Positions 5,249 to 25,777 of a stretch of 64,000 nucleotides of DNA are shown one piece after another; the stretch's first letter is position 1, and every line of letters starts with the position of its first letter. The translations under genes were made by a program, and so were the position numbers. The notes beneath the pieces are model-generated. The model had not been told where the DNA came from. It ran no database searches and was given only the letters and a program-made list of their open reading frames with translations. Origin of the DNA: Cenarchaeum sp. (lineage in GTDB: Archaea > Thermoproteota > Nitrososphaeria > Nitrososphaerales > Nitrosopumilaceae); assembly GCA_965242695.1 (NCBI GenBank), contig CBDESU010000002.1:1611136-1675135 (forward strand), read 5' to 3'.

Positions 5249-5269
5249 GGGGGGGGGGGGGGGGGGGGG
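5249..5269 (+). repeat. Poly-G tract (21 G)
   Basis: Read directly; intergenic, upstream of PINA. Confidence 0.85.
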
Positions 5270-5581: not shown

Positions 5582-7609
5582 TTGGGAGACCGCATCGTAC
5601 TCGACACAAGCATCATTGTCAACGGCGAGACCGTGCGGATGATCGACAGGGGCATGTTCGACGGCGCAGAGGTAGTCATACCAGAGGCCGTCGTCGACGA
5701 GCTCCAGTCGCAGGCGTCGCAAAAGCAGGAGCAGGGGTTCGTCGGGTTGCGCGAGATCAAAAAGATCCGCGACCTTGCGCCCAACCGCGGCATGACCGTC
5801 CGCTTCGAGGGGTCGCGCCCGACGGCCGACGACATACTGCTCTCCGACAGGGGGCGCATCGACGCCGTCATAAAGGACGCCGCGCGCGACGGCGGCTCGA
5901 CCCTGTACACGTCCGACAGGGTCCAGGCGATGGTCGCCGAGGCCGAGGGGATCGAGACGCAGCTCGTCAGGCAGCGCGGCAGGGAGAGGGAGCTCGAATT
6001 CACGGGGTTCTTTGATGCCACTACGATGAGCGTCCACCTCAAGGAGGGCCTGCCCCCAAAGGCCAAGCGGGGCAAGCCCGGCGCGTTCACGCTCGACGAC
6101 ATCGGCGATGCGCCGCTCACGAGGGACCGCATGCGCGGGATCGCCGCCGAGATACTAGAGGCGTCCAGGTCAGAGGGGGCCGACACCGAGATATCGCGCC
6201 CCGGCGCGCTCGTCGTCCAGTACGGCGACTACCGCATCGCCATGACGCAGCCGCCATTCTCGGACGGGCACGAGATCACCATAGTCCACCCGATCGTAAA
6301 GATGTCGCTCGGCGACTACGGCGTCTCGGAAAAGCTCATGGCGCGGCTCTCGGAAAAGGCCGAGGGCGTGCTTATATCCGGCCCCCCCGGGTCGGGCAAG
6401 AGCACGCTCGCCTCGGGCCTTGCAAACTTTTACCACTCGCGCGGCCGCGTCGTAAAGACGTTCGAGTCGCCGCGCGACCTCCAGGTCGAGCCAGGGATCA
6501 CGCAGTATACAAAGCTCGACGGCAGCTTTGAGAATACGGCAGACATACTGCTGCTCGTGCGCCCTGACTACACCATATTCGACGAGGTGCGGCGCGTCGA
6601 GGACTTTGCAGTGTTCTCGGACCTGAGGCTCACCGGGGTCGGCATGGTCGGGGTCGTCCACGCCAACGCGCCGCTCGACGCCGTCCAGCGGTTCATCGGC
6701 AAGATAGAGCTCGGGATGATACCGAGCGTGCTAGACACCGTCGTGTTCGTAAAGGACGGCGCGATAGAAAAGGCGTACGAGCTAGAGCTGATGGTAAAGG
6801 TGCCCTCTGGGATGACAGAGCAGGACCTTGCGCGGCCGGTCATCGTGGTGAGCGACTTTGAGGCGGGCGTGCCCGAGTACGAGATATACACGTTCGGCGA
6901 GGAGAATGTCATCGTCCCCGTGCAGGATTCGGGCAAGGGAGGCAAGGGCGGCGGCGAGAAGAGCGGCATGGCGCGGCTAGCCGAGCAGCGCATCGGCGAG
7001 ACGTTTCGGCGGTTCGACCCGGGGGCCCGCGTCGAGATAGTCTCGGACGGCAGGGCCAAGGTCACGGTCGCCAAGAGGCACGTGGCAAGGATAATCGGCA
7101 GGGGCGGCTCGAACATCGCCGAGCTTGAAAAGGCGCTCGGCGTGCGCCTCGACATCGACGGCGTCGAGGGCGGCGGCGAGGACGACGGCGGCGGGCCGAT
7201 CACGCTCGGCGGCTACGCGGGGCGCGACGGCGGCGGCAGGGACAGGGGCCGCGGCAGGGGGCGCGGCCGCGGCAGGGACAGGGACAGGGGCCGCTACGGC
7301 GACGAGTACGGCGGCGGCGACGGCGGAGACGACGGCGGCGGCGACGGGGAATATGGCGATCCCGGCGCGGACCGCGGGCCAGAGATACAGTTCACATTCT
7401 CGGAGACCCGCATGGGAACGGTGCTGACCGTCGGCCGCGAGCACATCGGCAGCCGCGCGTCCGTGTTCGTCGGCGGGCAGTACGTCGACTCGCCAAAGAT
7501 CACGCACAAGGGGCAGCTAAAGTTCCCGCGCCACTCGCCGCAGGGCCGCCGCTTCGCCGAGATGCTCACCTCGCCTGGCGACATACGCGTGTACCTCAGA
7601 GCCTCCTGA
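5582..7609 (+). CDS. pina: PINc/VapC-family ATPase (PIN + P-loop ATPase + KH; PINA)
   Basis: IVLDTS PIN start, GPPGSGKST Walker A, FDEVR Walker B, VGVVHA, and KH motif IIGRGG. Confidence 0.93.
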   Translation: MGDRIVLDTSIIVNGETVRMIDRGMFDGAEVVIPEAVVDELQSQASQKQEQGFVGLREIKKIRDLAPNRGMTVRFEGSRPTADDILLSDRGRIDAVIKDAARDGGSTLYTSDRVQAMVAEAEGIETQLVRQRGRERELEFTGFFDATTMSVHLKEGLPPKAKRGKPGAFTLDDIGDAPLTRDRMRGIAAEILEASRSEGADTEISRPGALVVQYGDYRIAMTQPPFSDGHEITIVHPIVKMSLGDYGVSEKLMARLSEKAEGVLISGPPGSGKSTLASGLANFYHSRGRVVKTFESPRDLQVEPGITQYTKLDGSFENTADILLLVRPDYTIFDEVRRVEDFAVFSDLRLTGVGMVGVVHANAPLDAVQRFIGKIELGMIPSVLDTVVFVKDGAIEKAYELELMVKVPSGMTEQDLARPVIVVSDFEAGVPEYEIYTFGEENVIVPVQDSGKGGKGGGEKSGMARLAEQRIGETFRRFDPGARVEIVSDGRAKVTVAKRHVARIIGRGGSNIAELEKALGVRLDIDGVEGGGEDDGGGPITLGGYAGRDGGGRDRGRGRGRGRGRDRDRGRYGDEYGGGDGGDDGGGDGEYGDPGADRGPEIQFTFSETRMGTVLTVGREHIGSRASVFVGGQYVDSPKITHKGQLKFPRHSPQGRRFAEMLTSPGDIRVYLRAS

Positions 7610-8848: not shown

Positions 8849-9730
8849 ATGGCCACGCGCCTGCAGGTGCTCGTACCGATCTCGGCGGCCGCGGTGATCG
8901 TCGGCGTGGCCGGAATCCTGACGATACCGAGCGACTCGAAGCTAGAGTCGACCGAGTTCCCGCGCGGCACGGTACTGGTCGACGGCAGCGCGATCGAGGT
9001 GCAGGTGGCAAGCACTGCGCCGCAGCGCGCAAGGGGGCTCATGTTCCAGGAAGAGCTGCCGCCGGGCGAGGGCATGCTGTACATTCACGACGAACCGGGC
9101 GAGCATGCAAGGTGGATGCTCAACATGCAGTTTGCCGTCGATGCGGCCTGGTTCGATGCGGACGGCCGCGCCGTGCACGTCGAGCGGGACGTGCAGCCGT
9201 GCAAGTCGGCGCTCGAGCAGGCCACGTGCACGGCCGTCAACCCCGCCGCCGAGGCGCTGTACATACTGGAGGTGCCGGCCGGCCGCGCCGCCGAGCTCGG
9301 GATCGAAATAGGCTCGCGCCTGGATGTAGTCGAGGATGCGGCGTTCCCGCGCGGGACCGTCAGCGTCGGCGGGGTCGTAATCGAGGTGCAGGTAGCCGAC
9401 ACGCCCGAGCTGCGCTCGCGCGGCCTCCAGTTCCAGGACGCCCTGCCCTACGACGAGGGCATGCTGTTCGTCCACGACCGGCAGGGCGCGTACTCTATGT
9501 GGATGCCGAACATGAGGTTTGCACTAGACATGATGTGGTTCGACGCCGACGGGCGCGCGGTGCACATCGAGCGCGGCGTGCCGCCGTGCGGTCCCGACGT
9601 GTCCTCTACGGGGCGTTGCCCGTCGTACGGGCCGGGCGATGCGGCCCTGTACGTACTGGAGGCGACGGCCGGCTTTGCCGACATGCACGGGATCGACGGC
9701 TCCTCGCGGCTCGAGATCATCTCTGTATAG
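8849..9730 (+). CDS. Tandem DUF192-domain protein with N-terminal membrane anchor
   Basis: Two copies of EVQVA.T...R.RGL.FQ..LP..EGML....H.....WM.NM.F..D..W.D and YILEV/YVLEA. Confidence 0.88.
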   Translation: MATRLQVLVPISAAAVIVGVAGILTIPSDSKLESTEFPRGTVLVDGSAIEVQVASTAPQRARGLMFQEELPPGEGMLYIHDEPGEHARWMLNMQFAVDAAWFDADGRAVHVERDVQPCKSALEQATCTAVNPAAEALYILEVPAGRAAELGIEIGSRLDVVEDAAFPRGTVSVGGVVIEVQVADTPELRSRGLQFQDALPYDEGMLFVHDRQGAYSMWMPNMRFALDMMWFDADGRAVHIERGVPPCGPDVSSTGRCPSYGPGDAALYVLEATAGFADMHGIDGSSRLEIISV

Positions 9731-9938
9731 GCGGCGCCCTGCAGGGGGCGGGGACATGGCGCCGCGCGCCGGCGATCGCGCCCGCTTGTGATCGGGACCG
9801 CGGCCTGCCGGTCCTGCCGGATTTTTCGCACCTGCAGGCCGGCGCGGGCGCGCCAGCAGCGCGGCGGGCTGAAGCGGTCGGCTCGCATTTGCGGGACGCC
9901 CGCGCCTGCGCTCCGTTGCCGGCCCCCTGCGCCTAGAA

Positions 9939-9945
9939 TTTTATA
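9939..9945 (+). promoter_or_regulatory. TATA box of the tRNA gene
   Basis: TTTTATA ending ~23 nt upstream of the tRNA 5' end. Confidence 0.6.
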
Positions 9946-9967
9946 GCGCCCCCGCGGGCGGCCCATA

Positions 9968-10041
9968 GGGCCCGTAACTCAGCTTGGTAGAGTAACCGAC
10001 TCATAATCGGTGAGCCGTGAGATCGAAGCTCGCCGGGCCCA
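9968..10041 (+). tRNA. tRNA with CAT anticodon, probably tRNA-Ile2 (agmatidine type) rather than Met
   Basis: Cloverleaf: acceptor GGGCCCG/CGGGCCC+A, D arm ACTC-AGCTTGGTA-GAGT, anticodon arm ACCGA-CTCATAA-TCGGT, T arm GTGAG-ATCGAAG-CTCGC. The GGGCCC acceptor is typical of archaeal Ile tRNAs. No intron and no encoded CCA. Confidence 0.9.
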
Positions 10042-10098
10042 CCTCCTTCCCCTGCCGCGCCGGGCGCCGCCGGTGCCGATCTTGGGCGCGCGCCGCCT

Positions 10099-12270
10099 TC
10101 AACTCTTGGCCTTGCTGTACTGCAGCGCCCTCAGGACCTCGGTGTAGTCCTCGTCGCTGTACAGCTCTTTGACCGCGGCCTTTTTGTCGAGCACCCTTGC
10201 CGATCCGTCGAGCATCGACACGATCCACCTGGCATCGGCCGGCCCGAGCACCATGGTGACATGGCCGCACTCTGACTTGTCGATGCCCTCGCGCCATATC
10301 GGGAACGCAAAGAAGTCGTAGTCGTTCGCTAGGAGGATGGATGCCCGCTCCTCGGACTCCTTCATGGCTATGGCCAGTATCTGCTGGTCCTTGTCCGCCG
10401 CCGATCTGAGGTGGCGCAGCAGCTCCTTCAGGTCCTCCTCCCCTCCATCCCCTCCGTGCCTTGCGATGGCGCCCCTCGACGTGCGCCTTCCCTTCGTCCC
10501 GTCCACCTCTTCCTTCCGGGGCATTCCCATCTTGTCCAGTATGGCGCCGATCCTGGCCCCCTCCGCATCGCCCGCACGCTCGGGGTCGGCCCACCTGAAC
10601 TTCCTGTCGATCCACCTGATCGACTCGTCGCTGAGCGGGTCGTCGACAAGCTGCCCCCTGAGGTCGTCAATGGCCTTTTCGTACCCCTCGTACCCGTATA
10701 CCGTCTCAAACGCCCTCAGGCTCGCGCCGGCATATTCCTTGGTCCCCTGCCATACGCTGTCGCGCTCGGGGAGAAGCAGGTCGTCCCTGCGGAGGTCGAC
10801 GTAGTCTAGCTGCGGCCCGTAAAAGCCGGGGTTTTCCAGCTCGCCTTTGCTTCGCTTCTTGTGGTTTAGGACCACGCTCGTGTCCAGTACCACGCGCATG
10901 CCGCCGCGCGCCGCGCGGCGCGGCGCGGCGGCCGGCGGCTTGGGTGCGCGCCGGGAAGCGGCCGCACCCGCGGGAGCGCCGGCCGGCGGCACGGGCACGG
11001 CGCCTGCACCGGGAGCCTTCGGCCTGCGCGCCACGGGCCTGCGCGCCACGGGCCTCTTGTCCTCTACGGGACGGCTCCCTTTCGAGCCAGACGCCCTCCG
11101 CACTGCAACTGCGACGACGACCGCAACGACCGCCGCCACGGCGACGGCCGCCGCCAGCACCATGGCGGTGTCTAGGCCCGTGCTTGGATATGCTTGCCCA
11201 CCTGCGGCTTCTTCCCGGGGCGAATGCGCGGCGCTGGACGGTGCGCCCCTTTCCGCCCCTTCAGACTCCCGCGGCGCGGCATCCGGCGGCCCGGGCTCGC
11301 CGCCGGGCGCGGGGACTGCAGGGCTGGCCGGAGCGGACGCTGCCGGCCCCTCGACCTGTCGCCGATCCTCCGATGGTGCGGCCTCGACCTCCCGCTCGGG
11401 CGCCTGCATCGCCGCGCCGCCGCCCGCATCGCCAGACTCGACCCAGAACGGGGCGCGCGCAAGCTGGCCGGCTCCGGTGACGACCGCCGTGTACTCGCCA
11501 TCGCCGCCCCACCGCCCGCCGGGGGGCATTATGGTCGCCGAGTAGGTGCCCGCGGTGCTGGTCGTGAGCACCCCCGAGTACACAACGCCGGCCGACGGGC
11601 CGGCGACGTCGATGCGCAGGCGCACCCCAGCGCCTGCGCCCTCGGCGGTGCCGTGCACCGTGACGGCCGCATCGGGCGAGTAGATGGGCCTTGACACGCT
11701 CGCCGACAGGCCCAGGATGGAGCCGGACGCATCTGCTGCGCCGGGATCATCCCCGGCAGCCTCTCCGCGCGCCGGCGCGGCCGCGGCGGGAACCTGCGGG
11801 GGGCGCACGACCTCAAAGTACACGGTGCCCAGGGATGCGCCCCCGTGCGATGCCGACACCTTGTACCTGCCGGGCCTCGAGTCGGCCCCTGTGGGGAACG
11901 GCTTGTCGAGCTGGTACGGGACGGCAAAGTGGCCGCCGCGCGTGGCCAGTGCGGACTGCTCGGACCTGGACGAGTCGGGCAGCGTCACGACGACGTCGAC
12001 CTGCCTGCGCTCGCCGGACTCGGCGAACATCTGGCCGGTTATCCTGACCGTGACGGGAGTGTGCCTCTCGAGGACATAGATGGTCTCCTCGACGGCTAGC
12101 CTGCCGTGCCGGGTCTCGTCGTGCCCCTGGGCCCAGGCCTGGTGCGGCGCCGCGGCGGCCACCATTCCGAGTACTGTCGCGAATGCGACGGCGGCGAACA
12201 GGGCCGGTAGCAGTGTGTGCATCGGCGCCTGGCGCGGCGCGCCGCGGCCGACTGCGCCGATCCTGCCCAT
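10099..12270 (-). CDS. Membrane-anchored Ig-like / PIN-domain fusion protein (alternative start 12222)
   Basis: Signal peptide ending AWA-Q, two Ig-like beta-sandwich domains, Pro/Ala linker, TM helix (11101-11166), then a PIN-like domain from 10899 (RVVLDTSVV ... DQQILAIA ... ILLANDYDF). Confidence 0.75.
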   Translation of the reverse strand: MGRIGAVGRGAPRQAPMHTLLPALFAAVAFATVLGMVAAAAPHQAWAQGHDETRHGRLAVEETIYVLERHTPVTVRITGQMFAESGERRQVDVVVTLPDSSRSEQSALATRGGHFAVPYQLDKPFPTGADSRPGRYKVSASHGGASLGTVYFEVVRPPQVPAAAAPARGEAAGDDPGAADASGSILGLSASVSRPIYSPDAAVTVHGTAEGAGAGVRLRIDVAGPSAGVVYSGVLTTSTAGTYSATIMPPGGRWGGDGEYTAVVTGAGQLARAPFWVESGDAGGGAAMQAPEREVEAAPSEDRRQVEGPAASAPASPAVPAPGGEPGPPDAAPRESEGAERGAPSSAAHSPREEAAGGQAYPSTGLDTAMVLAAAVAVAAVVAVVVAVAVRRASGSKGSRPVEDKRPVARRPVARRPKAPGAGAVPVPPAGAPAGAAASRRAPKPPAAAPRRAARGGMRVVLDTSVVLNHKKRSKGELENPGFYGPQLDYVDLRRDDLLLPERDSVWQGTKEYAGASLRAFETVYGYEGYEKAIDDLRGQLVDDPLSDESIRWIDRKFRWADPERAGDAEGARIGAILDKMGMPRKEEVDGTKGRRTSRGAIARHGGDGGEEDLKELLRHLRSAADKDQQILAIAMKESEERASILLANDYDFFAFPIWREGIDKSECGHVTMVLGPADARWIVSMLDGSARVLDKKAAVKELYSDEDYTEVLRALQYSKAKS

Positions 12271-12319
12271 CGGCGGGCCCCGCCGAGGCGGCTAAAAACC
12301 TTGCCGGCCGCACTCGCAC

Positions 12320-12339
12320 GGGGGGGGGGGGGGGGGGGG
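12320..12339 (+). repeat. Poly-G tract (20 G)
   Basis: Read directly; 50 nt upstream of the Ig-PIN gene start. Confidence 0.85.
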
Positions 12340-12919
12340 CGCAGCCATGGGCAGGCGCTGCGAGATCTCCACCGCGTATCTTGCAGGACGGCGGATGCGC
12401 CTGCGTGGCGCGGCCGCGGACCGTCGGGATGGGCGTCCCGCCGGTGCGGGCGCACCCGCAGCATCCATCGACCCTGCGCCCCCCGCGGCCTGGGACGGGC
12501 CCTTCCTGGATGCTGCGCCGCCGACGGTTTAAAGGCGCCTGCGGTGCGGCCCGCCCGCGGCGCGATGAAGAATCAGAGTTATGCCTGACGCAATGATGAA
12601 AAGGCATTTGACCGAGCTGCCGCAACCGCCGCCCCGATGCGCCCGCAACCGCCGTACGGCGCGGCCCGGGCGGGCTCGCGCAACGGCGGAGACTGCGCGC
12701 GGCCGCTGCAGCCGGGGAGTGCGCCGGATGCATGCGCCCGCATCTGCGACTTCCTACGGCCGAGGGCCCGCCGAACGCAACGGGCCGAAGAGGCGGGGCC
12801 AGGCTGCGCGCGCCGCACCGGGCGCGGCGGCTGAGCTCTTCCGCGGGCCTGGGCCTGGATGCCAGCATGCGCATGCGCGACTTTCTCACGCCTACGCGAA
12901 GGGTATATGGCCAACCGGT

Positions 12920-13120
12920 ATGCGGCACTTCTTGATGATGAGGGAGGTCAAGCCGCTCAGCGACCGGCAGTGGACCATGGTCATAGAGCAGCTGAGGGAG
13001 GGCCCTACACCCGAGATGAGGCGCACCCTCCAGATGGCTAGGGAGCAGGCCAAGTACGTGAAGGAGATCGATCATGAAGAGGTTGAAAGGCGCCGCAGGC
13101 GAGCAGCGGAAGAGTCCTGA
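12920..13120 (+). CDS. Putative small antitoxin (DUF1778/TacA C-terminal-like)
   Basis: VKPLSDRQWTMVIEQLREGPTPEM resembles the C-terminal L-S-x3-W/F-x6-L-x2-P-x-P segment of DUF1778. It overlaps the GNAT gene and has a paralog at 42753. Confidence 0.6.
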   Translation: MRHFLMMREVKPLSDRQWTMVIEQLREGPTPEMRRTLQMAREQAKYVKEIDHEEVERRRRRAAEES

Positions 13121-13640
13121 GATTTCTCTGGTGCGCGCCGGCACTGATCCCGACCCAAACTTCGATTGCCGAAACCCCGAGTTCAACGACTACTACAGGG
13201 TCGCTTCCTATAGTGACATGGAAGAGGGCCTGAACCGAACATGGCGGCATATTGGCGACGAGGGGGCCGCGCTCGTCCACATCTCGGTCGCGGCGGCGCA
13301 CCTGCGCCCCGGCCGCGACCCTGCCCTGCGGGGGATGGGCTACGGCAACATCCCCGCACCCCTCGCCGGCTGCCTTGCCACGGACAAGGGCCACGAGCGG
13401 CAGGGGGTGGCCGCCAAGCTTTTGCTGTGGTCAATCGAAGAGGCGATGCGCCTGTCGGAGAGGATCGGATGCCGCATCGTCATGCTCAACCCCCTCGACG
13501 ATCCCGACACCATGCGATTCTATCGCAACCTTGGCTTTAGGTACATGCCAGCTGGCAATGGCGAGGATGATGTATTCTATATTGATATACAGGACAAGAT
13601 TAGGGCTGACGCCCGCCCCCTGCCGGCCAATACGGCCTAA
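13074..13640 (+). CDS. GNAT acetyltransferase, TacT/AtaT toxin-like
   Basis: FDCRNPEFNDY (cf. FDCG...LN.YL), IPA...LATDKGHERQGVA acetyl-CoA motif, IGCRIVML, FYRNLGF. Confidence 0.8.
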   Translation: MKRLKGAAGEQRKSPEISLVRAGTDPDPNFDCRNPEFNDYYRVASYSDMEEGLNRTWRHIGDEGAALVHISVAAAHLRPGRDPALRGMGYGNIPAPLAGCLATDKGHERQGVAAKLLLWSIEEAMRLSERIGCRIVMLNPLDDPDTMRFYRNLGFRYMPAGNGEDDVFYIDIQDKIRADARPLPANTA

Positions 13641-14034
13641 CCATGATCACCAGCTTTCCGGCGCGCCTCGACATCCGTGCCTGCCTCTGACCTGTTGTGC
13701 GGTTGACCTACGGCGCTTCGCCGGTGCAGGCGTATGAAGTGTGGGCGGGCAAAGAAGGGCATTGGAAGTTGCCCTGCCGTTCGTAGTCGCAGCCGTAGCC
13801 ATGCCGGCTTGGCACCTGCATGGAGTCGATCGCACTGACACTGGACGCATCAGCGCCGTGGCGAGCCGCGCCGGCTCGCCCCCGGGCCACGCCCCGTGCA
13901 TATTCCGGTCTCTGGCAAACGACGCGCTCGCCTAGGGCGGACAGGGCGAAGTTGACGCTGGAGACCTGAATGTCTACGCATGCGGCATCGGACTCCCCCG
14001 TTGGGTTTATTTTCAGAGCGGCGCGCCCCCCGCC

Positions 14035-15183
14035 GTGCCCGAGATCTGGCTCAACTACGGCTCGTCGAACGTCGTAGTCGACGTGAGGGCCGAGAACCTG
14101 GGCGAGACGATATCGGGGGGGCCCGCGGGTGCGCTAGAGGGCGAGGCGCTCGAAAAGGAGATCGACGGCATGATCGACCTCTCTGCACCCGCCGAGATGG
14201 CCGTCCTGCACAGCACGCCGGCCGTCCATGCGCTGCTCAACTCCGTTCTCGGCATGTGCGAGCGCAGGTCGGTTGCGCCGCCGCGGATCGTCGCCGACCG
14301 GTGGGTGGCAGCGCCCCTGCGCGCCGCGCTCGCAGAGGGGGCGCGCGTCGAGTCCGGGGCGGTCCCGCAGGTCGGCGGGGATGCCGGGGGCGGGGGCCGC
14401 GACGGCGGCGGGGGCGGGCAGCCCTCGCGCACGACCTACTTTGTCGCCGAGGCCGAGCTCGACGGGCTGTTCGGGTACGAGACGGTCGCCACGCGCCTTG
14501 CGCGCCGGTTCGGCCGCGACGACGTAATGCTAGCGGCGTACGCAAAGCGGCGCGGCCCGGCGCCCGCCCCCGGCGAGGACGCGGCAGCGGCCGGCGAGGC
14601 GCGGCAGTTTGCCGACCGGTTCGAGGTTCGCGCGCTAGACATAGTGGCCGGGCCGGCGGGGATATCGCACGTGAGGGCGGGCCACCCGTCCGAGACGTCG
14701 CGCGAGGTGCCGCGCCTGCTAGAGGCGGCCGCCGTGCGCGACGGCGCGGCCGGAAGGCACCGGTCGCTCATTGCAAGCACGGGCAAGGCGGCAAGCAACG
14801 ACACGCTTGCGCGCTCGCTGTCGTCGCTGTGGAACTGCCGCGCGGCCGTCCCAAAGGGCGGCCTTGTCGTCCTGCTCGCCGAGTGCGGGCGCGGGACCGG
14901 CGCCGAGGCCGTGCAGCGGTTCGTCGAGGGGCGCCTCGACGTGGCCGACCTGCGCCGGCCGTCCCGGTACATCGACGGGATGGAGTCGCTGCTGTTCCTG
15001 GAGGAGGCGAAGCGGGACATCCAGGTCGGAATAGTCTCGGTCCTGCCGGACCTGTACACGAGGCGGCTCGGCCTCGTGCCGCTCGCCGGCGCCAGGACCG
15101 CACTCGAGTACACCCTGTCGACGATGGGGCAGAGGCACAAGGTGTCGGTCCTGCCGGATGCGGCCCGCTCGCTGCTGCGGTAG
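14035..15183 (+). CDS. Lactate racemase (LarA/DUF2088)-like protein
   Basis: GTG start MPEIWLNYG; DGLFGYE, ASTG, LLAECGRG motifs resemble degenerate LarA-fold proteins. Confidence 0.6.
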   Translation: MPEIWLNYGSSNVVVDVRAENLGETISGGPAGALEGEALEKEIDGMIDLSAPAEMAVLHSTPAVHALLNSVLGMCERRSVAPPRIVADRWVAAPLRAALAEGARVESGAVPQVGGDAGGGGRDGGGGGQPSRTTYFVAEAELDGLFGYETVATRLARRFGRDDVMLAAYAKRRGPAPAPGEDAAAAGEARQFADRFEVRALDIVAGPAGISHVRAGHPSETSREVPRLLEAAAVRDGAAGRHRSLIASTGKAASNDTLARSLSSLWNCRAAVPKGGLVVLLAECGRGTGAEAVQRFVEGRLDVADLRRPSRYIDGMESLLFLEEAKRDIQVGIVSVLPDLYTRRLGLVPLAGARTALEYTLSTMGQRHKVSVLPDAARSLLR

Positions 15184-16505: not shown

Positions 16506-19500
16506 ATGGTTATAGGCAAGTGCATGCGCCGCGGTGCGATGGCGGGCGCCCTCGTGCACGCGGCCGGCGTTGCCGCCCTTGCATGCCTTGCGGCGCTGGC
16601 CGCCGCAGCCGCGCTGCCTGATGCGGCGCATGCCCAGGGACCGCCGGACTCGGATGCGCCGTCGATCGTCTCGGTCGACGCGACAAGGGTCTTGACGGGG
16701 CCGGACTCGTCGGCCGTGTACGTCTCGGTCATGTTCAACGAGACGGTGCGCGTGCAGCCCGATCCCGACTCGGCGCCGCCGGCAGTGCGGGTTGTGGTGG
16801 CGGGCGAGCCGGCGGAGGCCGCATACGCGTCGCTGTCAAGCGACAACAAGACGGTCGTGTTCAGGTACGACTCGAACCAGGCAGGGAGCGGCCCGGCCGC
16901 CGGCTATGTCACGTACGCCTCTGCCATGCCGTTTGCGCTCAACAACGGCTCGATCACGGATGAGGCAGGCAACGCCGCCGACTTGGAGATGCCCCGCATA
17001 GCCGCCAGGCTGGACTCTGCCGCAGTCACGGCCGGCAACGAGATGCTCGTAGCGTACTCGATGCCCGCGTATGCATCGCCGTCGGACTATGCGAACCTGA
17101 CGCTCGTGCCGGGCGGGCCGCGGACGGTCACGGCGGTGGCCGGCAACGGGACGACCGAGCATGTCCTTACGTTCGGCGGCGCGCCGGCGCCGATCGGCGC
17201 GACCGCAACAATGGACGTGGCCGAGCTTGGCGACCGCCCGCCCGCGTACTTTGCCGGCGCGTCCGGCGTGCGGGTGGACGACGGCCGCGAGGGGTTTACA
17301 ATCGCCGGCTACATCGGGGATCCATTCCCCGTACCACTCCAGTCGCCGTCCGGCCTGGCCGAGGGGGCGGACGGCACGATCGTAGTCGCCGACACGCTAG
17401 GAGGCCACGTTGCCGTGTACCGCGAGGACGGCACGTTCGTCAGGGAGATGGGGACAAAGGGATACATCGACACCAGGCTGGTCGCAGACCCGGCCGACCA
17501 GGGCAAGATATACAGGGACCTGGGAACGCAGGGGTATGTCGACGACTCGTCGCTCGGCTTTGAGTTTTTGTCGTCAAACCGGGGGCACTCCGCCAGCCGC
17601 AGGGAATCGACGTGAGGAACGGCACCGTGTACGTCGCCGACATGCGCAACCTCCGCGTGCAGGCGCTAGACGAGGTGACCGGCAGGAGCACTCAGACGTA
17701 CCAGGTGTGGGCCAATCCGTACGGCGTGGCGCTGTCCCCCGACGGCGCCACACTGGCCGTGGCCGCCTCGCCGTGGAACATAGTCAGCCTGGTCAACACG
17801 AGCGCGGCGCTGCCGACCGAACGGATTGGCGGCGGCAACGCGTCCCCCGGTAAGCCCCACTGCCCTCCCCGCCTCATGTGCGATCCGGGATTGGGCAACA
17901 ACGAGCTCCGCTTCCCGCTTTCCGCCGCATTCGCCGCCAACGGCACAATGTACGTAGCCGACACAATCAACGAGCGCATCCAGGTGTTCGCCCCGAACGG
18001 CACGTACCTGTCGTCGATTATGATGCCGCCGCTCCCGGGAGGCGAGGCCAACTCGACGGAGCGCGGCCAGCCGAACCGCCTAGACGTCATCGACGCGTCG
18101 GGGACGATACTCGTAAGCGACGGGCTTGGAAGGGCGGTCTACGAGCTCGACGGCGCCGGCGGCATCGTCCGCCAGTTCGGCGGCCCAGACCTCTACGACC
18201 TGCCGCGGGGCGTGCTCGCGCACAGCAGCGGCATGGTCTACGTGGCAGACGGCGGCACCGACAGCATAATCGCGTTCAACGCCGACGGCACGCTCAACGC
18301 GACGATCGTCTCTGCGCTGCACGGCCCGCTAGAGTTCGGGGCGCTGTTCGGCATTGCGGTCGAGCCCGACGGCCGGATCGTCGTCGTCGACGGCGGCAAC
18401 GACCGCGTCCAGTTCGTCAGGCGGGCCGACAACGGCACGTACGTGCACGACGGGTCGTTCGGCGAGCGCGGATCGGGCGACGGCCAGATGTGGTTCCCCG
18501 CCGGCACCGCCATTGCGCCCAACGGGGACATACTCGTAGCCGACCACACCAACAACCGTGTGCAGCGGTTCGATGCCGACGGCGCGTACAAGTCGCAGTT
18601 CAACGTCACGACGGCGGACGGCCGGCAGGTGCCCCCGCGCGGGATTGCAGTGGACTCGGACGGCTCGATCTACGTCGCCTCGATCCGGATTGGCGCCATA
18701 CTAAAGTTCTCGCCCGACGGCAGCCTTGTCCAGTCGCTAAACGCATCGGGCCAGCTCCGGGCGCCGACCAGCCTGGACCTGGGGCCCGACGGCTCGCTGT
18801 ACGTCGTCGACGCGGACGCGGGGACGATCCGCGTCATTGATGCCGACGGCTCGCTCCTGCTCAACGCCGGCGTGCCGGCGCAGCCGGGCTTTTACTTCCG
18901 GCCCGGGTGGCTCCAGGGCCCGCACGATGTCGCAGTCGACTCCAACGGCAGAATAATCGTCGCCGACACGGGCCACGACCGCCTGCAGGTATTCGACCAC
19001 GCCGGCGGGTTCGTCATGTCCGCCGGCACGTTCGGGTTCTGCCCGCACCCCGACTGCCTGGGGCACGGCATCCAGTTCGACCAGCCGTTCGGGGTGGTGA
19101 TGGGCCCCGACGGCCTAGTATACGTCGCCGACACGCGCAACCACCGCGTCGTCGCGCTAGAGCCGCGCGACGCCGCCGCGCCGTCCATAGTGTCCGTCGA
19201 TACGACAAGGGTACTGACAGGGCCGAGCATGTCCAGCGTGTACGTCTCGGTCGTATTCGACGAGCCGATGCGCGTGTACGAGCGCCCCGACTCGGCGCCG
19301 CCGGCCGTCCGGATAGCAATCGCCGGCGAGCCCGCAGAGGCCGCGTACGAGTCGGGGTCGGGCACCGAGACGCTCGTGTTCCGCCACGCCTCGGGCCAGC
19401 CCGGAAGCGGCCCTGCGGACGGCTATGTCACATACGCCTCGGCCATGCCGTTTGCGCTCAACAACGGCTCGATCACGGATCTGGCCGGCAACAGGGCCGA

Positions 19501-22500
19501 CCTGACAGTGCCCCGCATCGATGCAAAGATGGACTATGCGGCCCTCACGGCCGCCAACGAGATCACCGTGGCGTACTCGATGCCCGCGTACGCCTCTCCC
19601 GCGGACTATGCGAACCTGGCACTAGAGCCGGGCGGGCCGCGCGCGGTAGTGTCGGTGGCCGGCAGCGGGACGACCGAGCACGTCGTCGCGTTCGGCGGCG
19701 CGCCGGCGCCGATCGGCGCGACCGCAGTGATGGACGTGGCCGAGCTCGCCGGCCGCCCGCCCGCATACTTTGCCGGCGAGTCCGGCGTGCGGGTGGCCGA
19801 CGGCCGCGAGGGGTTTGCGATCGTCGGCCACGTCGGGGATCCCTTCCCCGTGCAGCTCCAGGCGCCGACGGCCCTGGCAGAGGGGGCGGACGGCACAATT
19901 GTAGTCGCCGACACGCTCGGAGGCCACGTTGCCGTGTACCGCGAGGACGGCACGTTCGTAAGGGAGATGGGGACAAAGGGCTACATCGACACCGCCCTGG
20001 TCGCCGACCCTGCCGACCAGAATGCGATATACGGGGAGCTGATAGGGCGCGGGTACGTCGGCGCCTCGTCGCCGGGACTAGACTTTCTGTCGTCGAACCC
20101 CGGGGCGTTCCGCCAGCCGCAGGGGGTCGACGTTCGGGACGGCGTCGTGTACGTCTCCGACATGCGCAACCTCCGCGTGCAGGCAGTCGACGAGGTGACG
20201 GGTCGTCATATTGAGACGTACCCGACATGGTTCAACCCGTACGGCATGGCCCTGTCCCCCGACGGCGGCACCATGGCAGTGACCTCGCCGATCTGGAACC
20301 TGGTCAGCCTGGTCAACACGACCACGGGGCTGCCGCACGGCATGATCGGAGGCGGCGGCGCGGCCGGCGCCGTCCACTGCCCTCCCCGCCTTGCATGCCC
20401 GCCGGGATCGGGCGATGGCGAGTTCTGGTTCCCGCTGTCCATAGCCGTGGCCGGCGACGGCACAATGTACGTCGCCGACACGTACAACGAGCGCATCCAG
20501 GCGTTTGCCCCGAACGGCACGCACCTGTCGTCCATTCCGATGCCGCCGCTCCCTGTAGGCGATGCCGACTCGGCGGCGCGCGGCCAGCCGTACCGCCTGG
20601 ACGTCAACGACGCGGCCGGGACGATACTTGTAAGCGACGGGCTTGCAAGGACGGTCTACGAGCTGAACGGCACGGGCGGCATCGTCCGCCAGTTCGGCGG
20701 CCACGACCTCTACGACCTGCCGCAGGGCGTGCTCGCGCACAGCAGCGGCATGGTCTACGTGGCAGACGGCGGCGCCGACAGCATAATCGCGTTCAACGCC
20801 GACGGCACGCTCAACGCGACGATCGTCTCGGCACTGCACGGCCCGCTCGAGTTTGGCTCGCTGATTGGAATCGCAGTCGCGCCCGACGGCCGGATCGTCG
20901 TCGCCGACAGCGGCAACGACCGCGTCCAGTTCGTCCGGCGGGCCGGCAACGGGACGTACGTGCACGACGGGTCGTTTGGCGAGAGCGGCTCGGGCGACGG
21001 CCAGGTGTCGTTCCCCGCCGGCACCGCCATTGCGCCCAACGGCGACATCGTCGTAGCCGATTATCTCAACGACCGCGTGCAGAGGTTCGACTCGGCCGGC
21101 GCGTACAAGTCGCAGTTCAACGTCACGACGGCCGACGGCCGGTCCGTGCCCCCGCGCGGGATCGCCATGGGGACCAACGGCTCGATCTACGTCGCCTCGA
21201 ACCTGGCCGATGCGGTGCTGGAGTTCTCTTCCGACGGCTCCCTGGTGCGGTCGCTCAACGCCTCGGGCCTGTTCCAGGCGCCGACCAGCCTCGACATTGG
21301 CCCCGACGGCTCGATCTATGTCGTCGACGCCGACGCGGCGACTGTCCGCGTCCTTGATGCCGACGGCTCGCAGCTGTTCAGCGTCGGAGTGCCGGCGCAG
21401 CCGGGCTTTTTCTTCCGGCCCGGCTGGCTCCAGGTCCCGGACGACGTGGCAGTCGACGCCAACGGCAGAATAATCGTGGCCGACACGGGCCACGACCGCC
21501 TGCAGGTCTTCGACCACGCCGGCGGGTTCGTCATGTCTGCCGGCGCGTTCGGGTTCTGCCCGCACCCCGACTGCCTGGGCCACGGCATCCAGTTCGACCA
21601 GCCGTTCGGCGTGACGACGGGCCCCGACGGCCTCGTGTACGTGGCCGACACGCGCAACCACCGCGTCGTCGTCCTAGAGCCGCGCGATGCCGATGCACCG
21701 TCGATAGTATCCGTCGATGCGACAAGGGTGTCGACCGGCCCGGATGCGTCATACGTGTACGTCTCGGTCACGTTCGACGAGCCGATGCGCGTGTACCAGC
21801 GCCCCGACTCGGCGCCACCTGCGGTCCGGATATCCATTGCCGGCGGGCCCGCAGAGGCCGCATACGCCTCGGGGTCGGGCACCGAAACGCTCGTGTTTCG
21901 CCACGCCTCCGATCAGGCCGTGAGCGGCCCGGCGGACGGCTACGTCACGTACGCCTCGGCCGAGCCGTTTGCGCTCAACAACGGATCAATCACGGACGCG
22001 GCCGGCAACCGCGCCGACCTGTCGATGCCGCGCATAGAGGCACGGCTGGAGTCGGCCGCCGTCGCGTCGGGCAACGAGGTCCTCGTCGCGTACTCGAGGC
22101 CGGCCTACGCCTCGCCCTCGGACTATGCGAACCTGACGCTCATGCCGGGCGGGCCGCGGACGGTCACGGCGGTGGCCGGCAATGGGACGACCGAGCACGT
22201 CCTCGCATTCGACGGCGCGCCGGCTGCGATCGGCGCCACTGCTTCCATGGACATTGCAGAGCTCGCGGACCGCCCGCCGGCATACTTTGCAGGCGCATCC
22301 GGCATGCGGGTCGACGACGGCCGCGAGGGGTTTGCGATCGCCGGCCATATCGGGGATCCCTTCCCCGTGCAGCTCCAGTCGCCGTCCGACCTGGCAGAGG
22401 GGGCGGACGGCACAATCGTAGTCGCCGACACGCTCGGAGGCCACGTTGCCATGTACCGCGAGGACGGCACATTCGTAAGGGAGATGGGAACAAAGGGCTA

Positions 22501-25500
22501 CCTTGACACCTCCCTGGTCGCCTACCCTGCAGACCAGAATGCGATATACGGGGAGCTGGCAAGGCGGGGCTACGTCGGCCCCTCGTCGCCGGGCCTCGAC
22601 TACCTGTCGTCAAACCCCGGGGCGTTCCGCCAGCCGCAGGGGCTCGACGTTCGGGACGGCGTCGTGTACGTCGCCGACACGCGCAACCTCCGCGTGCAGG
22701 CCGTCGACGAGGTGACCGGCAGGCACCTTCAGACGTACCAGGTGTGGTCCAACCCGTACGGTGTGGCGCTGTCCCCCGACGGCGCCACCATGGCAGTGAC
22801 CTCGATCTGGAACCTGGTCCTCCTGGTCAACGCGACCACGGGGCTGCCGTACGACATGATCGGCGGCGGCGCGGCCGGCGCGACCAACTGCCCTTCCCGC
22901 TTGGCATGCCTGCCGGGCTCGGCCGAGGGCGAGTTCCGGTCCCCGCTGTCCATCGCCGTGTCTGGCAACGGCACGATGTACGTCGCCGACACGTACAACG
23001 AGCGCATCCAGGCGTTCGCCCCGAACGGCACGCACCTGTCGTCGATTCCAATGCCGCCGCTCCCTGGAGGCGATGCCAACTCGACGGCGCGCGGCCAGCC
23101 GTACCGCCTGGACGTCAACGAGGCGGCCGGGACGATACTCGTAAGCGACGGGCTCGCAGGGACGGTCTACGAGCTCGACGGCGCCGGCGGCGTCGTCCGC
23201 CAGTTCGGCAGCCCGGGCCCCTACGACCAGCCGCAGGGCGTGCTCGCGCACAGCAGCGGCATGGTCTACGTCGCCGACGTCGACTCGGACATGATAATCG
23301 CGTTCAACGCCGACGGGACCCTCAACGGGACGATCGTCTCGGACGCGCACGGCCCGCTAGAGTTCGGCGAGATATTCGGCATTGCGGTCGAGCCCGACGG
23401 CCGGATTGTCGTCGCCGACGGCGGCAACGACCGCGTCCAGTTCGTCCGGCGGGCCGGCAACGGGACGTACGTGCACGACGGGTCGTTCGGCGAACGCGGC
23501 TCGGGCGACGGCCAGATGTGGTTCCCGACCGGCACGGCCATTGCGCCCAACGGCGACATACTCGTGGCCGACTATGTCAACGACCGCGTGCAGAGGTTCG
23601 ACTCGGCCGGCGCGTACAAGTCGCAGTTCAACGTCACGACGGCGGACGGCAGGTTGGTGCCCCCGCGCGGGATCGCCATGGGGACCAACGGCTCGATCTA
23701 CGTCGTCTCGAACCTGGCCGGCGCGGTGCTCGAGTTCTCGCCCAACGGCTCCCTGGTGCGGTCGCTCAACGCATCGGGCCTGTTCCGGGCACCGACCGGC
23801 CTCGACATCGGCCCCGACGGCTCGATCTACGTCGTCGACTCGGACGCGGCGACTGTACGCGTCCTTGATGCCGACGGCTCGCCGCTGTTCAGCGTCGGCG
23901 AGCCGGGGCAGCTGGGATTCTTCTTCCGGCCCGGGTGGCTCCAGATCCCGGGCGACGTGGCAGTCGACGACAACGGCCGCATCATCGTAGTCGACACGGG
24001 CCACGACCGCCTGCAGGTCTTCGACCACGCCGGCGGGTTCGTCATGTCCGCCGGCACGTTCGGGTTCTGCCCGCACCCAGACTGCCTGGGCCACGGCATC
24101 CAGTTCGACCAGCCGTTCGGCGTGACGGTGGGGCCCGACGGCCTCGTCTACGTCGCCGACACGCGCAACCACCGCGTCGTGGCGCTCGAGCCGCGCGATG
24201 CCGATGCGCCGTCGATCGTGTCGGCCGCATCCGCCGTCAACGCCACGACGGGGTCGGCGACCGTCTCGGTCGTATTCGACGAGCCGATGCGCGTGTACCA
24301 GCGCCCCGACTCGGCGCCGCCGTCCGTCCGGATCACAGTTGGCGGCGAGCCCGCAGAGGCCGCGTACGCGTCGGGGTCGGGCAGCGCAACGCTCGTATTC
24401 CGGCATGTTCCGGCGCAGGACGGCGGCGGCTCTGGGGGCGGGAGCGTAGGGTACGCCTCGGCAGAGCCGTTTGCGCTCAACAACGGCTCGATCACGGATG
24501 CGGCCGGCAATCGCGCCGACCTGTCGATGCCGCCCATGCCGGATCCGGAAGAGGGCGGCGCGCGGGATGCAGAGCCAGTTGTAGTAGTGGTCCCGCCGCC
24601 GGCGCCCGGCCCGGCCGCCGGGCAGTTCTTCGGCGGCGGCGGAGGGGGCGGCGGAGGGGGCGGCGGCGGCGGAGGCTCCTCCGTACTTGCCCCGTCCACA
24701 TCCGGCGCAGTCTCTGTCGATTCCGTCTCGTGGGACTGCGACGAGGGGACGATGCGGATCGCGGTCGGCGTGGCGGGCGGATCTGGCGCGTCCGTGCGGC
24801 CGGACGTCGAGGTCATGTCTCCGGCCGGAACGGTGGCGGCAAGTGCGGCCGATCGGCAGGCACCAGGCAGCAGCACGTTCGCATACGAGGCGTCCCTGCC
24901 GGAGGACACGCTCCTGCTGATCCGGGCATCGCTTGTCGACGGGCGCACCGTCCATTCCGTATCCGAGACCGTCCGCACGGACGGGAGGTGCACCGGCGAG
25001 GTGGTCTTTGCGCAGGCCGGAACGGACGCCCCGGCGCCGCCAGAGGCGCCGCCAGAGGCGCCGCAGGCCGGCGCTGATGCCGCAGCCGGCGACGACGTGG
25101 CCGAGGCCGAGGCGGGGATGGACGAGGCGGAGGAAGAGGATCACCCGCACCCGCACCCGCACCCGCACGAGCCTGCCGATGCTGCGCCAGGCGGAGAGAT
25201 GCCAAGCGCAGAGATGCCGGGCGAGGAGACGGCGGGCGATGCGATGCCCCCGATGCCGCCGCCGGCCGAGCCCGCGGACGCTCAAGATGCGCCGCCGGCC
25301 GAGCCCGCGATGCCTGTAGGCGGCACACCTGCCGGGGACGACGGGGATGCTGCGCCGTCCGACGCCGCCGCCGGGCCGCCGGCTGCCCAGCCGGACGCGG
25401 AGGGCGGCGGCTGCCTGATCGCAACTGCCGCCTACGGGACCGAGCTTGCCCCGCAGGTGCAGGCGCTGCGCGAGTTCCGCGACGGCCAGCTGCTCTCGAC

Positions 25501-25777
25501 GGGCGCCGGCTCTGCGCTCATGGCCTCGTTCAACACGGCGTACTATGCCGTCTCCCCGCAGATGGCCGACTTGGAGCGCGAGCACCCGGCCCTTCGCGAC
25601 GCCGTCCGCCTTGCAATCGCGCCCGTGCTGCACGCAGCCCACGCCGCCTCGCAGGCCGTGGAGGCATCCGTAGACGGCGCCGCCTACGCGGCCGCCTTTG
25701 CCTCGCTGCTTGCCGCCGCGTGCGTTGCCGCCCCGTCCGCCGTTGCCTCCCGCCATGCGCGCCGGCCCTCCTCGTGA
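16506..25777 (+). CDS. Giant NHL-repeat surface protein with CFI-box-CTERM anchor; reading frame broken once at ~17580
   Basis: Signal peptide (AAHA-Q) and many NHL repeats (P.GVAV.PDG.IYVADT.N.RVQ.F), then poly-Gly, an acidic Pro linker, GGGCLIATAAYGTELAPQVQALREFRD and a TM helix. ORFs 16506-17615 and 17612-25777 join if one base is restored in AAC-CGG (other copies read AAC CCC GGG). Confidence 0.88.
16653..24540 (+). repeat. Three tandem ~2.52-kb units plus a partial fourth
   Basis: Unit starts (x-APSIVS) at 16653, 19175, 21692 and 24203; periods 2522, 2517, 2511. Confidence 0.9.

Follow-up and report, generated by a model that had tools for sequence, protein, structure and literature searches.

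A gene of 723 codons plus stop (10099..12270, minus strand) lies in a 64,000-nucleotide stretch of the genome of a Cenarchaeum sp. (assembly GCA_965242695.1, contig CBDESU010000002.1, positions 1,611,136 to 1,675,135; hereafter the window). Its product is predicted to be a receptor-type membrane protein in which two extracellular immunoglobulin (Ig)-like domains are joined through a single transmembrane helix to a cytoplasmic domain with the fold of the VapC-type PIN nucleases. PIN and VapC nucleases have been known as soluble toxins checked by a separate antitoxin, or as RNA-processing enzymes. We give about an even chance to the reading that the protein described here is an outside-in ribonuclease (RNase), i.e., a single-pass, N-out/C-in membrane RNase that would be controlled in cis and to which the ectodomain would supply the input. 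If the outside domain does control the RNase, the protein would be a prokaryotic transmembrane receptor with RNA cleavage as its output, and a concrete candidate for host or envelope sensing by an uncultured sponge symbiont. Even on a more ordinary reading it would be a toxin-type nuclease tamed by tethering and by elements in cis.

Domain Architecture and Membrane Topology

The predicted protein is divided as follows (aa, amino acid residues; pLDDT, predicted local distance difference test; MG, macroglobulin; AF2, AlphaFold2).

12130..12270, minus strand: signal peptide or N-terminal anchor, aa 1-47, with a basic n-region, a hydrophobic core at aa 16-43 and AWA/Q
11791..12129, minus strand: extracellular beta-sandwich domain 1, Ig/MG2-like, aa 48-160 (AF2 strands, sub-threshold Pfam MG2, match to 5vi0_A)
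11716..11790, minus strand: Ala/Gly/Asp-rich inter-domain linker, aa 161-185, with pLDDT <50 in the model and in-frame indels tolerated
11431..11715, minus strand: extracellular beta-sandwich domain 2, MG-like, aa 186-280 (2p9r_B by VIA-align, C3b and RbmA by Foldseek)
11176..11430, minus strand: acidic Pro/Ala/Glu-rich extracellular stalk, aa 281-365, of low complexity and variable length, with 6 Lys+Arg vs 14 Asp+Glu
11095..11175, minus strand: single transmembrane helix, aa 366-392, hydropathy peak 3.05, ending in the basic stop-transfer VRR
10900..11094, minus strand: basic Arg/Pro/Ala-rich cytoplasmic juxtamembrane linker, aa 393-457, with 15 Lys+Arg vs 2 Asp+Glu
10102..10899, minus strand: cytoplasmic PIN-like (VapC-type) nuclease domain, aa 458-723, 266 aa (AF2 model, VIA-align and hhalign)

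With a window of 19 aa, exactly two segments exceed a hydropathy of 1.6, namely aa 16-43 and aa 363-396. The first is preceded by Arg residues and followed by AWA/Q, and AWAQ was present in all 11 of the family proteins that reach the N-terminus (18 were examined, the other seven being without the region). The original prediction, made from the nucleotide sequence of the window, had described this segment as a cleavable signal peptide; the hydrophobic core and the conserved AWAQ agree with it, and the segment is presumably cleaved. Were it to stay in place, the sidedness of the ectodomain (outside) and of the C-terminal domain (inside) would not change. The second segment is kept in all homologues covering the region and is directly followed by VRRASGSK, so that the helix with a basic stop-transfer (VRR...K) was found as foreseen. 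Because an acidic stalk precedes the helix and a basic linker follows it, the charges are split according to the positive-inside pattern, which indicates an N-out/C-in orientation. The two hydrophobic segments and this charge asymmetry agree with the type I membrane topology proposed at the outset, and a type I-like arrangement, with the ectodomain outside and the C-terminal domain in the cytoplasm, is supported at the level of sequence.

Both low-complexity regions beside the helix differ in length among the homologues. The stalk measures 88-112 aa in those homologues in which it could be delimited by regular expression, and the juxtamembrane linker 56-86 aa, with the reading frame always kept. 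A tandem repeat in the linker (11021-11055, period 15 nt, 2.3 copies), which encodes RPVAR twice, is expanded in one homologue (P0006).

Fold of the C-Terminal Domain

At the level of the fold, and as far as a predicted model allows, the C-terminal domain was confirmed as a VapC-type PIN domain, as the original prediction had stated, even though Pfam does not see it. The AF2 model, calculated from a 14-row alignment, had a pLDDT of 87.0 and a predicted template modelling score of 0.86. In a comparison with 48,161 chains by VIA-align, a method independent of Foldseek, the 12 best rows were all VapBC, FitAB or other toxin-antitoxin entries (Z 9.2-7.7, root-mean-square deviation (rmsd) 2.7-3.5, 105-121 residues aligned). 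The best of them was VapC2 (3zvk_A; rmsd 2.9, 115 of 134 residues) with a Z of 9.2, which is modestly above the background of this method, commonly Z 7-8; among the others were 6a7v_A (8.7), 4chg_A (8.6) and 2bsq_A (7.9). Seven chains had a Z of at least 8, all of them entries of VapBC or toxin-antitoxin complexes, and 25 had a Z of at least 5. The weight of this result would lie in one family topping the list and in the near-whole coverage of its members rather than in the Z values alone. Lower rows held PAE0151 and AF1683, which we take to be PIN proteins, as well as VapC20, Nob1, the PilT N-terminus of SSO1118, the PIN domain of RRP44, 3ix7 and AF0591. Foldseek returned nothing from the Protein Data Bank (PDB) at E <=1e-3; its top match was the PIN-like RNase P HARP (7e8j_A, E 9.7e-3, probability 0.90), and VapC11 stood at rank 11.

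The sequence profiles point in the same direction. When the family alignment was compared by hhalign with the PIN domains of 13 PIN-ATPase-KH proteins (the copy in the window and 12 orthologues), the probability was 71.8% and P was 3.5e-5, as against P of 0.11 and 0.49 when the ATPase and KH portions of these proteins served as controls. The first 70 residues of the domain alone gave P 2.1e-6, and residues 140-215 alone gave a colinear match with P 0.0097 in which D628 and D650 were paired with the third and fourth PIN acids; over all these comparisons the ATPase and KH controls gave P 0.06-0.6. The Pfam model PIN_4 (PF13638) matches two of 14 family members weakly (best E 0.065), and the domain of the window protein itself has no Pfam match up to E 10. 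When PF01850 was run over the genome of the Cenarchaeum sp., 12 other PIN loci were retrieved and the present one was not among them.

Other searches with this domain were less informative. The top clusters of the ESM Atlas, searched with a homologue that consists of the PIN domain (P0013), were unnamed archaeal or viral ones (0.90), with PIN_halo at rank 27 (0.86) as a lead only, and the full-length homologue P0003 gave no usable match there. A profile search of PDB sequences with the family alignment (A1) returned one spurious match (E 7.2), and the best match in the viral library BFVD was a flap endonuclease (E 0.015).

Predicted Active-Site Residues and Additions to the Fold

The active-site acids of PIN domains lie after strand S1, at the N-terminus of helix H4 and after strand S4, with the fourth usually after S2, according to section 12 of the 2017 PIN catalogue (PMC5499597). 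In the AF2 model D463 (10882-10884) follows S1 (aa 459-462), D504 (10759-10761) follows S2 (aa 498-501), D628 (10387-10389) is near the start of the helix at aa 626-638, before S4, and D650 (10321-10323) and D652 (10315-10317) follow S4 (aa 644-647). These five residues are invariant in every family row covering them, over a range of 45-98% identity, and E640 is invariant too. All four canonical catalytic positions are thereby predicted to carry an invariant Asp, the positions being assigned by order relative to the predicted strands and helices. The acidic motifs named in the original prediction were all located, i.e., LDTS at aa 462-465, DQQILAIA at aa 628-635 and NDYD at aa 649-652.

Two parts of the domain are additional to the PIN core.

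10399..10716, minus strand: ~100-aa helical insertion in the PIN domain, aa 519-624, between the S3 region and H4
10102..10245, minus strand: C-terminal extension after S5, aa 676-723, with two extra strands and two helices

The alignments of the VapC chains (~130 aa) spread over model residues 1..221, yet they match only ~115 residues. The helices of the insertion occupy residues 71-86, 91-101, 106-109, 112-124 and 135-167 of the domain, and the insertion carries an invariant PLSDESIRW motif (E549, S550, W553, K557). The tail has strands at residues 223-229 and 234-237 and helices at 240-246 and 249-260, and Foldseek gave only weak chemokine-like (beta-beta-beta-alpha) matches for it (E 0.4-1).

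Ectodomain

The AF2 model of aa 48-285, built from a nine-row alignment, had a pLDDT of 73.1 and consisted of two all-beta domains joined by a disordered linker, which is 21-25 aa long across the homologues. Together with the structural comparisons this bears out the two Ig-like domains of the original prediction. By VIA-align, domain 2 (model residues 139-231) matched an MG domain of human alpha2-macroglobulin (2p9r_B; Z 12.0, rmsd 2.1, 90 of 97 residues) and invasin (1cwv_A, Z 11.1), and domain 1 (model residues 7-109) matched the Ig-like 5vi0_A (Z 10.6, rmsd 2.6, 97 residues aligned); archaeal S-layer proteins were also listed, namely 7ptp_A (Z 10.7) and the Nitrosopumilus S-layer protein 8c8k_A (Z 9.7). 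Foldseek returned RbmA (E 2.7e-8) and C3b (2wii_A, E 4.4e-8), followed by A2M, A2ML1, TEP1 and the alpha2-macroglobulin of E. coli, with C3, A2M and TEP1 at E ~1e-7. Pfam MG2 (PF01835) matched aa 88-154 at E 0.0011 with 19.7 bits, under its cut-off of 32.8. It also matched eight of the 14 rows of a second alignment (A2; best member E 1.3e-4), in which eight rows carry the ectodomain, without it being specified which rows matched. The two modules have no sequence similarity detectable by BLASTP (E 19) that would indicate an internal duplication. They have in common the fold of the MG and Ig-like domains of alpha2-macroglobulin, complement C3, invasin/intimin and archaeal S-layer proteins. However, in contrast to the MG proteins, the present protein has two such domains only, without thioester or bait region, and these are followed by a transmembrane helix and a nuclease domain.

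Across the family the identity is 79-99% in the ectodomain vs 51-98% in the PIN domain. Because the ectodomain is the best-conserved part of the protein, the sequences point to a conserved ligand, such as the cell's own envelope, a host molecule or a homophilic contact, rather than to a fast-evolving virus.

Evidence for the Gene

The window has ~70% G+C, and long chance open reading frames (ORFs) are therefore common in it. Nevertheless, the 723 codons without a stop form a real gene under purifying selection. The G+C content by codon position (0.72/0.56/0.84) resembles that of neighbouring real genes, and a genome of the same genus (G004) holds an orthologue of 729 aa. The ratio of nonsynonymous to synonymous substitution rates (Ka/Ks) relative to this orthologue was 0.34 in ectodomain 1, 0.18 in ectodomain 2, 0.25 in the transmembrane helix and 0.54 in the PIN domain; the low-complexity linkers could barely be aligned. 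The single uninterrupted ORF reported at the outset is thus upheld.

Continuity of the sequence was examined over 10000-12400 in Logan contigs from four runs of four studies, one of which (X1) may be the source sample and thus not independent. The X1 contig spans 10589-11683 with 0 differences, and contigs of a further run (X5) span 10000-10963 and 10942-12307, so that the junction at 10900-11100, for which a check of read continuity had been advised, is bridged in both. Differences among the four runs consisted of substitutions and one in-frame 3-nt deletion at 11746, which is the sole indel in the ORF and is present in contigs of two runs from two studies.

Upstream of the gene one promoter element was recognized.

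12293..12298, minus strand: TATA-like TTTTTA box, 22 nt upstream of the ATG at 12270, the sole AT-rich run of at least 5 nt before any start of the gene region

The element is kept as GTTTTTAGCCGC before the orthologue in G004, with equal spacing (23 nt). Such spacing implies a leaderless or near-leaderless mRNA and would support M1 as the start. In G004 the promoter of the orthologue (L015, ~11600-11720) contains a tandem duplication of ~57 nt that includes the TATA-like box GTTTTTAGCC, and it is without a homopolymer tract.

Family and Distribution

Twenty distinct proteins of the family were counted, the one in the window included; two of them (P0002 and P0019) are known as table rows only. 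The ectodomain, transmembrane helix and PIN domain stand in one frame in 11 of the 20, nine of which run from N- to C-terminus, while P0005 lacks ~90 aa at its N-terminal end and P0011 is truncated C-terminally. Five calls start in the stalk and comprise the helix and the PIN domain (P0006, P0012, P0014, P0017 and P0019), those of P0006 and P0014 on contigs of 47 and 72 kb; three comprise the PIN domain only (P0013, P0015 and P0018), and two (P0021 and P0022, contigs of 2-3 kb) comprise the ectodomain only, breaking off in the stalk and continuing into tails of unrelated sequence. As judged from these sequences, the link between ectodomain and helix is the majority state and the breaks are confined to the low-complexity stalk, where they may reflect either genuine decay or splitting of the gene or artefactual frameshifts in GC-rich DNA of low complexity. 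Among the 20 family proteins, none separates the transmembrane helix from the PIN domain where upstream sequence exists. The fusion seems to be under selection, as the linkers vary in length yet the frame is kept and the sole indel in the ORF is one of 3 nt.

The family is small. An HMMER search of 1.84 billion representatives with the C-terminal domain gave seven proteins at E <=1e-3, of which one was a spurious repeat protein and six were true members, and searches with the ectodomain returned only the same family. The gene was found in one of 40 relatives (G004). When the profile was run against 400 other genomes of the phylum, five of them gave matches, all marginal (E 0.002-0.007, 14-16 bits, 35-80 positions) and read as chance. 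In its own genome, which also contains archaeal amoA, the gene is present as a single copy. When a hidden Markov model (HMM) of the C-terminal domain was run against the 34,672 stop-to-stop ORFs of that genome, only the gene itself was recovered, the next match having E 3.8, and a search for related loci in genome contigs and metagenome contigs gave pattern matches only and no relatives. Six of the 12 runs containing the stretch are labelled 'sponge metagenome', and the labels of the others are coded. Given the empty sites of same-genus genomes and its presence in one of 40 relatives, the gene is accessory, belonging to a few sponge-associated ammonia-oxidising archaea.

Comparison with Known Systems

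The best structural matches of the C-terminal domain, the VapC and FitB toxins, have in common with it the order of strands and helices and the four acidic positions. On the other hand, the present domain differs from them in being membrane-tethered behind an ectodomain, in having no adjacent antitoxin gene, in its ~100-aa insertion and ~48-aa extension, and in not being recognised by PF01850. The small, adjacent and co-oriented antitoxin gene by which a VapBC module is defined is absent from the locus.

That PIN domains are normally soluble, as the original prediction took for granted, needs a qualifier. A membrane-anchored group, PIN.COG4956 (YacL-type PIN-TRAM), has already been catalogued, with four N-terminal transmembrane helices, a TRAM domain, no ectodomain and almost exclusively bacterial members, and the main text of the catalogue (PMC5499597) names no other transmembrane PIN group. 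The likeness consists in a membrane-anchored PIN domain facing the cytoplasm, and the representative 3ix7_B reaches only Z 5.3 with the present domain. Moreover, the protein described here differs in having a signal peptide, two Ig-like ectodomains, one transmembrane helix, no TRAM match and an archaeal host.

By sequence profile, the closest matches are the N-terminal PIN domains (PIN_4) of PIN-ATPase-KH proteins, with which the VLDTS(I/V)(I/V) motif of beta1 and the (L/I)(L/I)(L/I)P motif of beta2 are common. The present protein differs from them in being without ATPase and KH domains and in having the large insertion and the membrane context, and the HMM search of its own genome indicated no paralogy. 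In the conserved archaeal PIN-ATPase-KH protein of the window (5582-7609, plus strand) the KH domain is followed by a long stretch of low complexity composed of Gly, Arg and Asp (RGRGRGRGRDRDRGR...).

A resemblance in layout also exists with DUF4935 (PIN_12), for which section 20 of the catalogue (PMC5499597) describes a PIN-like core with a long insert of helices and, at the C-terminus, an additional alpha/beta part whose fold is unknown. This likeness is one of description; DUF4935 proteins are soluble, and PF16289 gave no match to the present domain at E up to 10.

The genome further encodes VapC-like PIN paralogues with an insertion of ~45 aa (G000, C1:679549-686827 and C2:58774, 894671 and 1472962), including three near-identical copies within 7 kb on C1. 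They were considered as relatives of the PIN domain described here and rejected, as hhalign found no match (P 0.17).

Outside the PIN proteins, the arrangement resembles that of Ire1, a type I membrane protein whose sensor domain lies across the membrane from its cytoplasmic RNase, which is switched on by oligomerisation. This is an analogy of logic only, since Ire1 is eukaryotic, consists of a kinase and a KEN RNase, and has no relation in sequence or fold to the protein of the window. The PIN fold and membrane PIN proteins as such are already known. The receptor-type, single-pass layout was not found described in full-text literature searches or in the main text of the 2017 PIN catalogue, the supplementary tables of which might list transmembrane PIN cases.

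Proposed Function and Alternatives

We infer nuclease activity, RNA as the substrate, the coupling of outside and inside, and a physiological role. In the proposed mechanism the protein would be a membrane-tethered, metal-dependent RNase without a separate antitoxin. The tether, the Arg-rich linker and/or the helical insertion of 100 aa would act in cis to restrain its activity; binding by the conserved ectodomain, for example via clustering, would switch this activity; and local cleavage of tRNA, rRNA or mRNA would change growth or translation. Control in cis is proposed because no antitoxin acting in trans was found: the block conserved with G004 (9922-12311) contains none, the upstream neighbour is divergent and downstream lies a tRNA gene. 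Two candidate elements are proposed, namely the conserved helical insertion and the Arg-rich linker next to an acidic active site. The corresponding cleft of VapC accommodates the antitoxin helix (PMC5499597, section 15).

Several points weigh against this interpretation. The domain has no significant match to any Pfam, NCBIfam, PADLOC or PHROG family; the PIN assignment comes from a predicted model of a shallow 14-row alignment and from weak profile matches, with a best Z close to background and the Asp tetrad ordered along predicted elements. The PIN domain evolves faster than the ectodomain (Ka/Ks 0.54 vs 0.18-0.34), which fits relaxed constraint as well as adaptation. The calls split in the stalk suggest that the link to the ectodomain may be dispensable or that these copies are decaying. 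Regulation of the nuclease by the ectodomain is deduced from the architecture, and among the 16 runs returned for the stretch there was no RNA dataset that could serve as evidence of expression.

It is possible, if rather doubtful, that the protein is a constitutive membrane RNase or surface protein, in which the ectodomain would anchor the protein in the envelope or S-layer or bind host matrix, and the PIN domain would always process RNAs near the membrane without signalling. The higher conservation of the ectodomain would be expected for structural contacts or contacts with a self-ligand, Ig-like arrays are typical of archaeal S-layer proteins and adhesins such as those matched above (8c8k_A, 7ptp_A), and forms without the ectodomain occur on long contigs. 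However, from what is known of VapBC, toxicity would be expected of a VapC-type nuclease that is neither regulated nor paired with an antitoxin, a rare accessory gene is ill-suited to a housekeeping role, and the ectodomain is fused in frame in 11 of 20 proteins despite the variable linkers.

A more specific form of the outside-in RNase reading, by analogy with Ire1, is improbable as it stands but would be the more far-reaching. The ectodomain would bind a ligand of the sponge host or of the envelope and cluster, the linker or the insertion, acting as a built-in 'antitoxin', would be displaced from a VapC-type PIN domain, tRNA or rRNA would be cut, and the symbiont would adjust its growth or enter dormancy. 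Some VapC toxins cut initiator tRNA, and the pairing of the gene with tRNA-Met(CAT) could then be more than a hotspot effect.

The original prediction had suggested a one-component abortive-infection or signalling device. Such a function goes beyond what the sequence shows, no PADLOC or PHROG family matched, and the ectodomain is the most conserved part, the opposite of what an arms race with viruses would produce. As a one-protein sensor in which virus contact at the ectodomain triggers the cytoplasmic RNase, the protein would be an accessory gene in a tRNA-adjacent variable site, with a toxin-type PIN domain lacking an antitoxin and beside a toxin-antitoxin-like GNAT module that is likewise inserted relative to another genome (G001), all of which would suit defence. 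In PMC7848895 sponge symbionts are described as heavily phage-exposed, but sponge Thaumarchaeota as not enriched in defence or toxin-antitoxin genes. Moreover, the strongest purifying selection of the protein is in the ectodomain, the annotated flanks contain no defence genes of restriction-modification or CRISPR type, and PADLOC-DB 2.0 gave 0 families for the whole protein and for the C-terminal domain at E up to 10. An antiviral sensor is accordingly held to be unlikely.

No more probable than that is an adhesin or host-interaction protein with a non-catalytic PIN-like scaffold or RNA- or protein-binding module. That Pfam PIN models miss the domain, that it has a large insertion and an extra tail and that its Ka/Ks is 0.54 could be understood in this way, and inactive PIN-like domains are known, e.g., SMG5 (2hwy_B, Z 4.5 by VIA-align). 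Invariance of the four acidic positions and of D652 and E640 over 45-98% identity would, however, be hard to explain without catalysis or metal binding.

The original prediction had itself named two findings that would overturn it, and neither was obtained. One, a C-terminus without the PIN fold, is countered by the model described above; the other was independent translation of the PIN part from the ATG at 10899 (a chance fusion or lost stop), and such a two-protein arrangement now appears very unlikely. Met458, encoded by this ATG, is present in most homologues, and two calls of 263 aa (P0013 and P0018) begin exactly at its equivalent. However, P0018 is identical to the C-terminal part of the 383-aa P0012, from the same 90% cluster, and that PIN-only form is therefore a gene-calling variant. 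In addition, Met458 is replaced in three of 13 readable family proteins (Thr in P0006, Leu in P0010 and P0014), neither a stop nor an AT-rich promoter element occurs in the 630 nt leading up to ATG 10899, the 11 proteins fused in frame come from different strains, and the read contigs bridge the junction. A secreted or contact-dependent polymorphic toxin, in which the conserved surface part would deliver the faster-evolving nuclease to neighbour cells, would fit the signal peptide, the surface Ig-like domains and the more conserved N-terminal part, but it is hardly credible given a transmembrane helix and strongly basic linker that predict a cytoplasmic C-terminus, a C-terminal domain that is homologous in all members and not swapped, and a tRNA gene 55 nt after the stop in place of an immunity gene.

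Genomic Context

The gene lies within a small variable site, the elements of which are as follows.

9968..10043, plus strand: tRNA-Met(CAT), found by ARAGORN (Rfam 57.8 bits), convergent to the gene and 55 nt from its stop
12550..12621, plus strand: C/D-box small RNA (sRNA)-like element, right border of the inserted segment (Rfam sR14, 27.6 bits with gathering threshold 38, E 1.8e-4, 12561-12617)
12320..12339, no strand assigned: G20 homopolymer (C20 on the sense strand of the gene), upstream of the TATA box and within the inserted segment

The gene was correctly placed directly behind a tRNA gene in the original prediction. This tRNA-Met, the only (cat) tRNA found by ARAGORN in the genome, forms the left border of the site. 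Two genomes of the genus have an empty site: in G001 the sequence corresponding to window 12550-12621 (L039, 1610-1682) begins 33 nt after the tRNA, and in G002 that corresponding to 12561-12687 (L037, 1645-1760) begins 68 nt after it, both by blastn; further on, G001 has a homologue of window 14027-14101. Relative to these two genomes, one small variable site has undergone two separate indels, the gene (~10044-12520) being one and the GNAT module (~12.65-13.95 kb) the other, in a comparison that is unpolarised and does not distinguish gain from loss. The block common to the window and G004 comprises only 9922-12311, i.e., the tRNA-Met, the gene and its promoter, and both flanks differ. Neither end of the tRNA (its first or last 20-30 nt) recurs as an exact copy elsewhere in the genome, and no integrase was seen in the annotated flanks. 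This site by tRNA-Met is an example of accessory genes that come and go within one archaeal genus.

The divergent neighbour had been taken for a GNAT toxin-antitoxin pair. The GNAT gene is present at 13074-13640 (plus strand; Acetyltransf_7, E 5.4e-6; Acetyltransf_1, E 6.1e-5), and the pair is a guess from gene arrangement, the small ORF belonging to no family. That ORF (12923-13117, plus strand) overlaps the GNAT gene, and the module as a whole (~12650-13950) has a lower G+C at third codon positions than its neighbours. In G001 the module is absent between the sRNA-like element, which in the window has its own TTTAAA box, and the homologue of ORF 14035.

The G20 tract remarked upon in the promoter region is real. 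However, it is not special, for the genome has 39 G or C runs of at least 14 nt (up to 34 nt), three of them in the window, and the orthologue in G004 has no such tract upstream; the tract should thus not be read as a dedicated switch for the gene. The three runs of the window are G27 at 1399-1425, G21 at 5249-5269 and G20 at 12320-12339. Counting from 10 nt upwards, the genome has ~230 G or C runs, and they change strand polarity block by block: C1 has G-runs up to ~0.97 Mb and C-runs at 1.06-1.95 Mb, and C2 has C-runs up to ~0.45 Mb and G-runs from ~0.76 Mb onwards. A replication-strand signature may underlie this pattern.

The gene immediately upstream of the tRNA encodes a secreted-looking protein with two tandem DUF192 domains (8849-9730, plus strand; E 2.8e-60), for which the G004 region gave no match at E <=1e-10. 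Repeat proteins of eukaryote-like type are often reported from sponge symbionts, and the window encodes one such giant of 2737 aa, with NHL repeats/beta-propeller (17564-25774, plus strand; NHL E 1.9e-123); a different giant, of 2320 aa, is located together with an IS66 transposase near the orthologue in G004.

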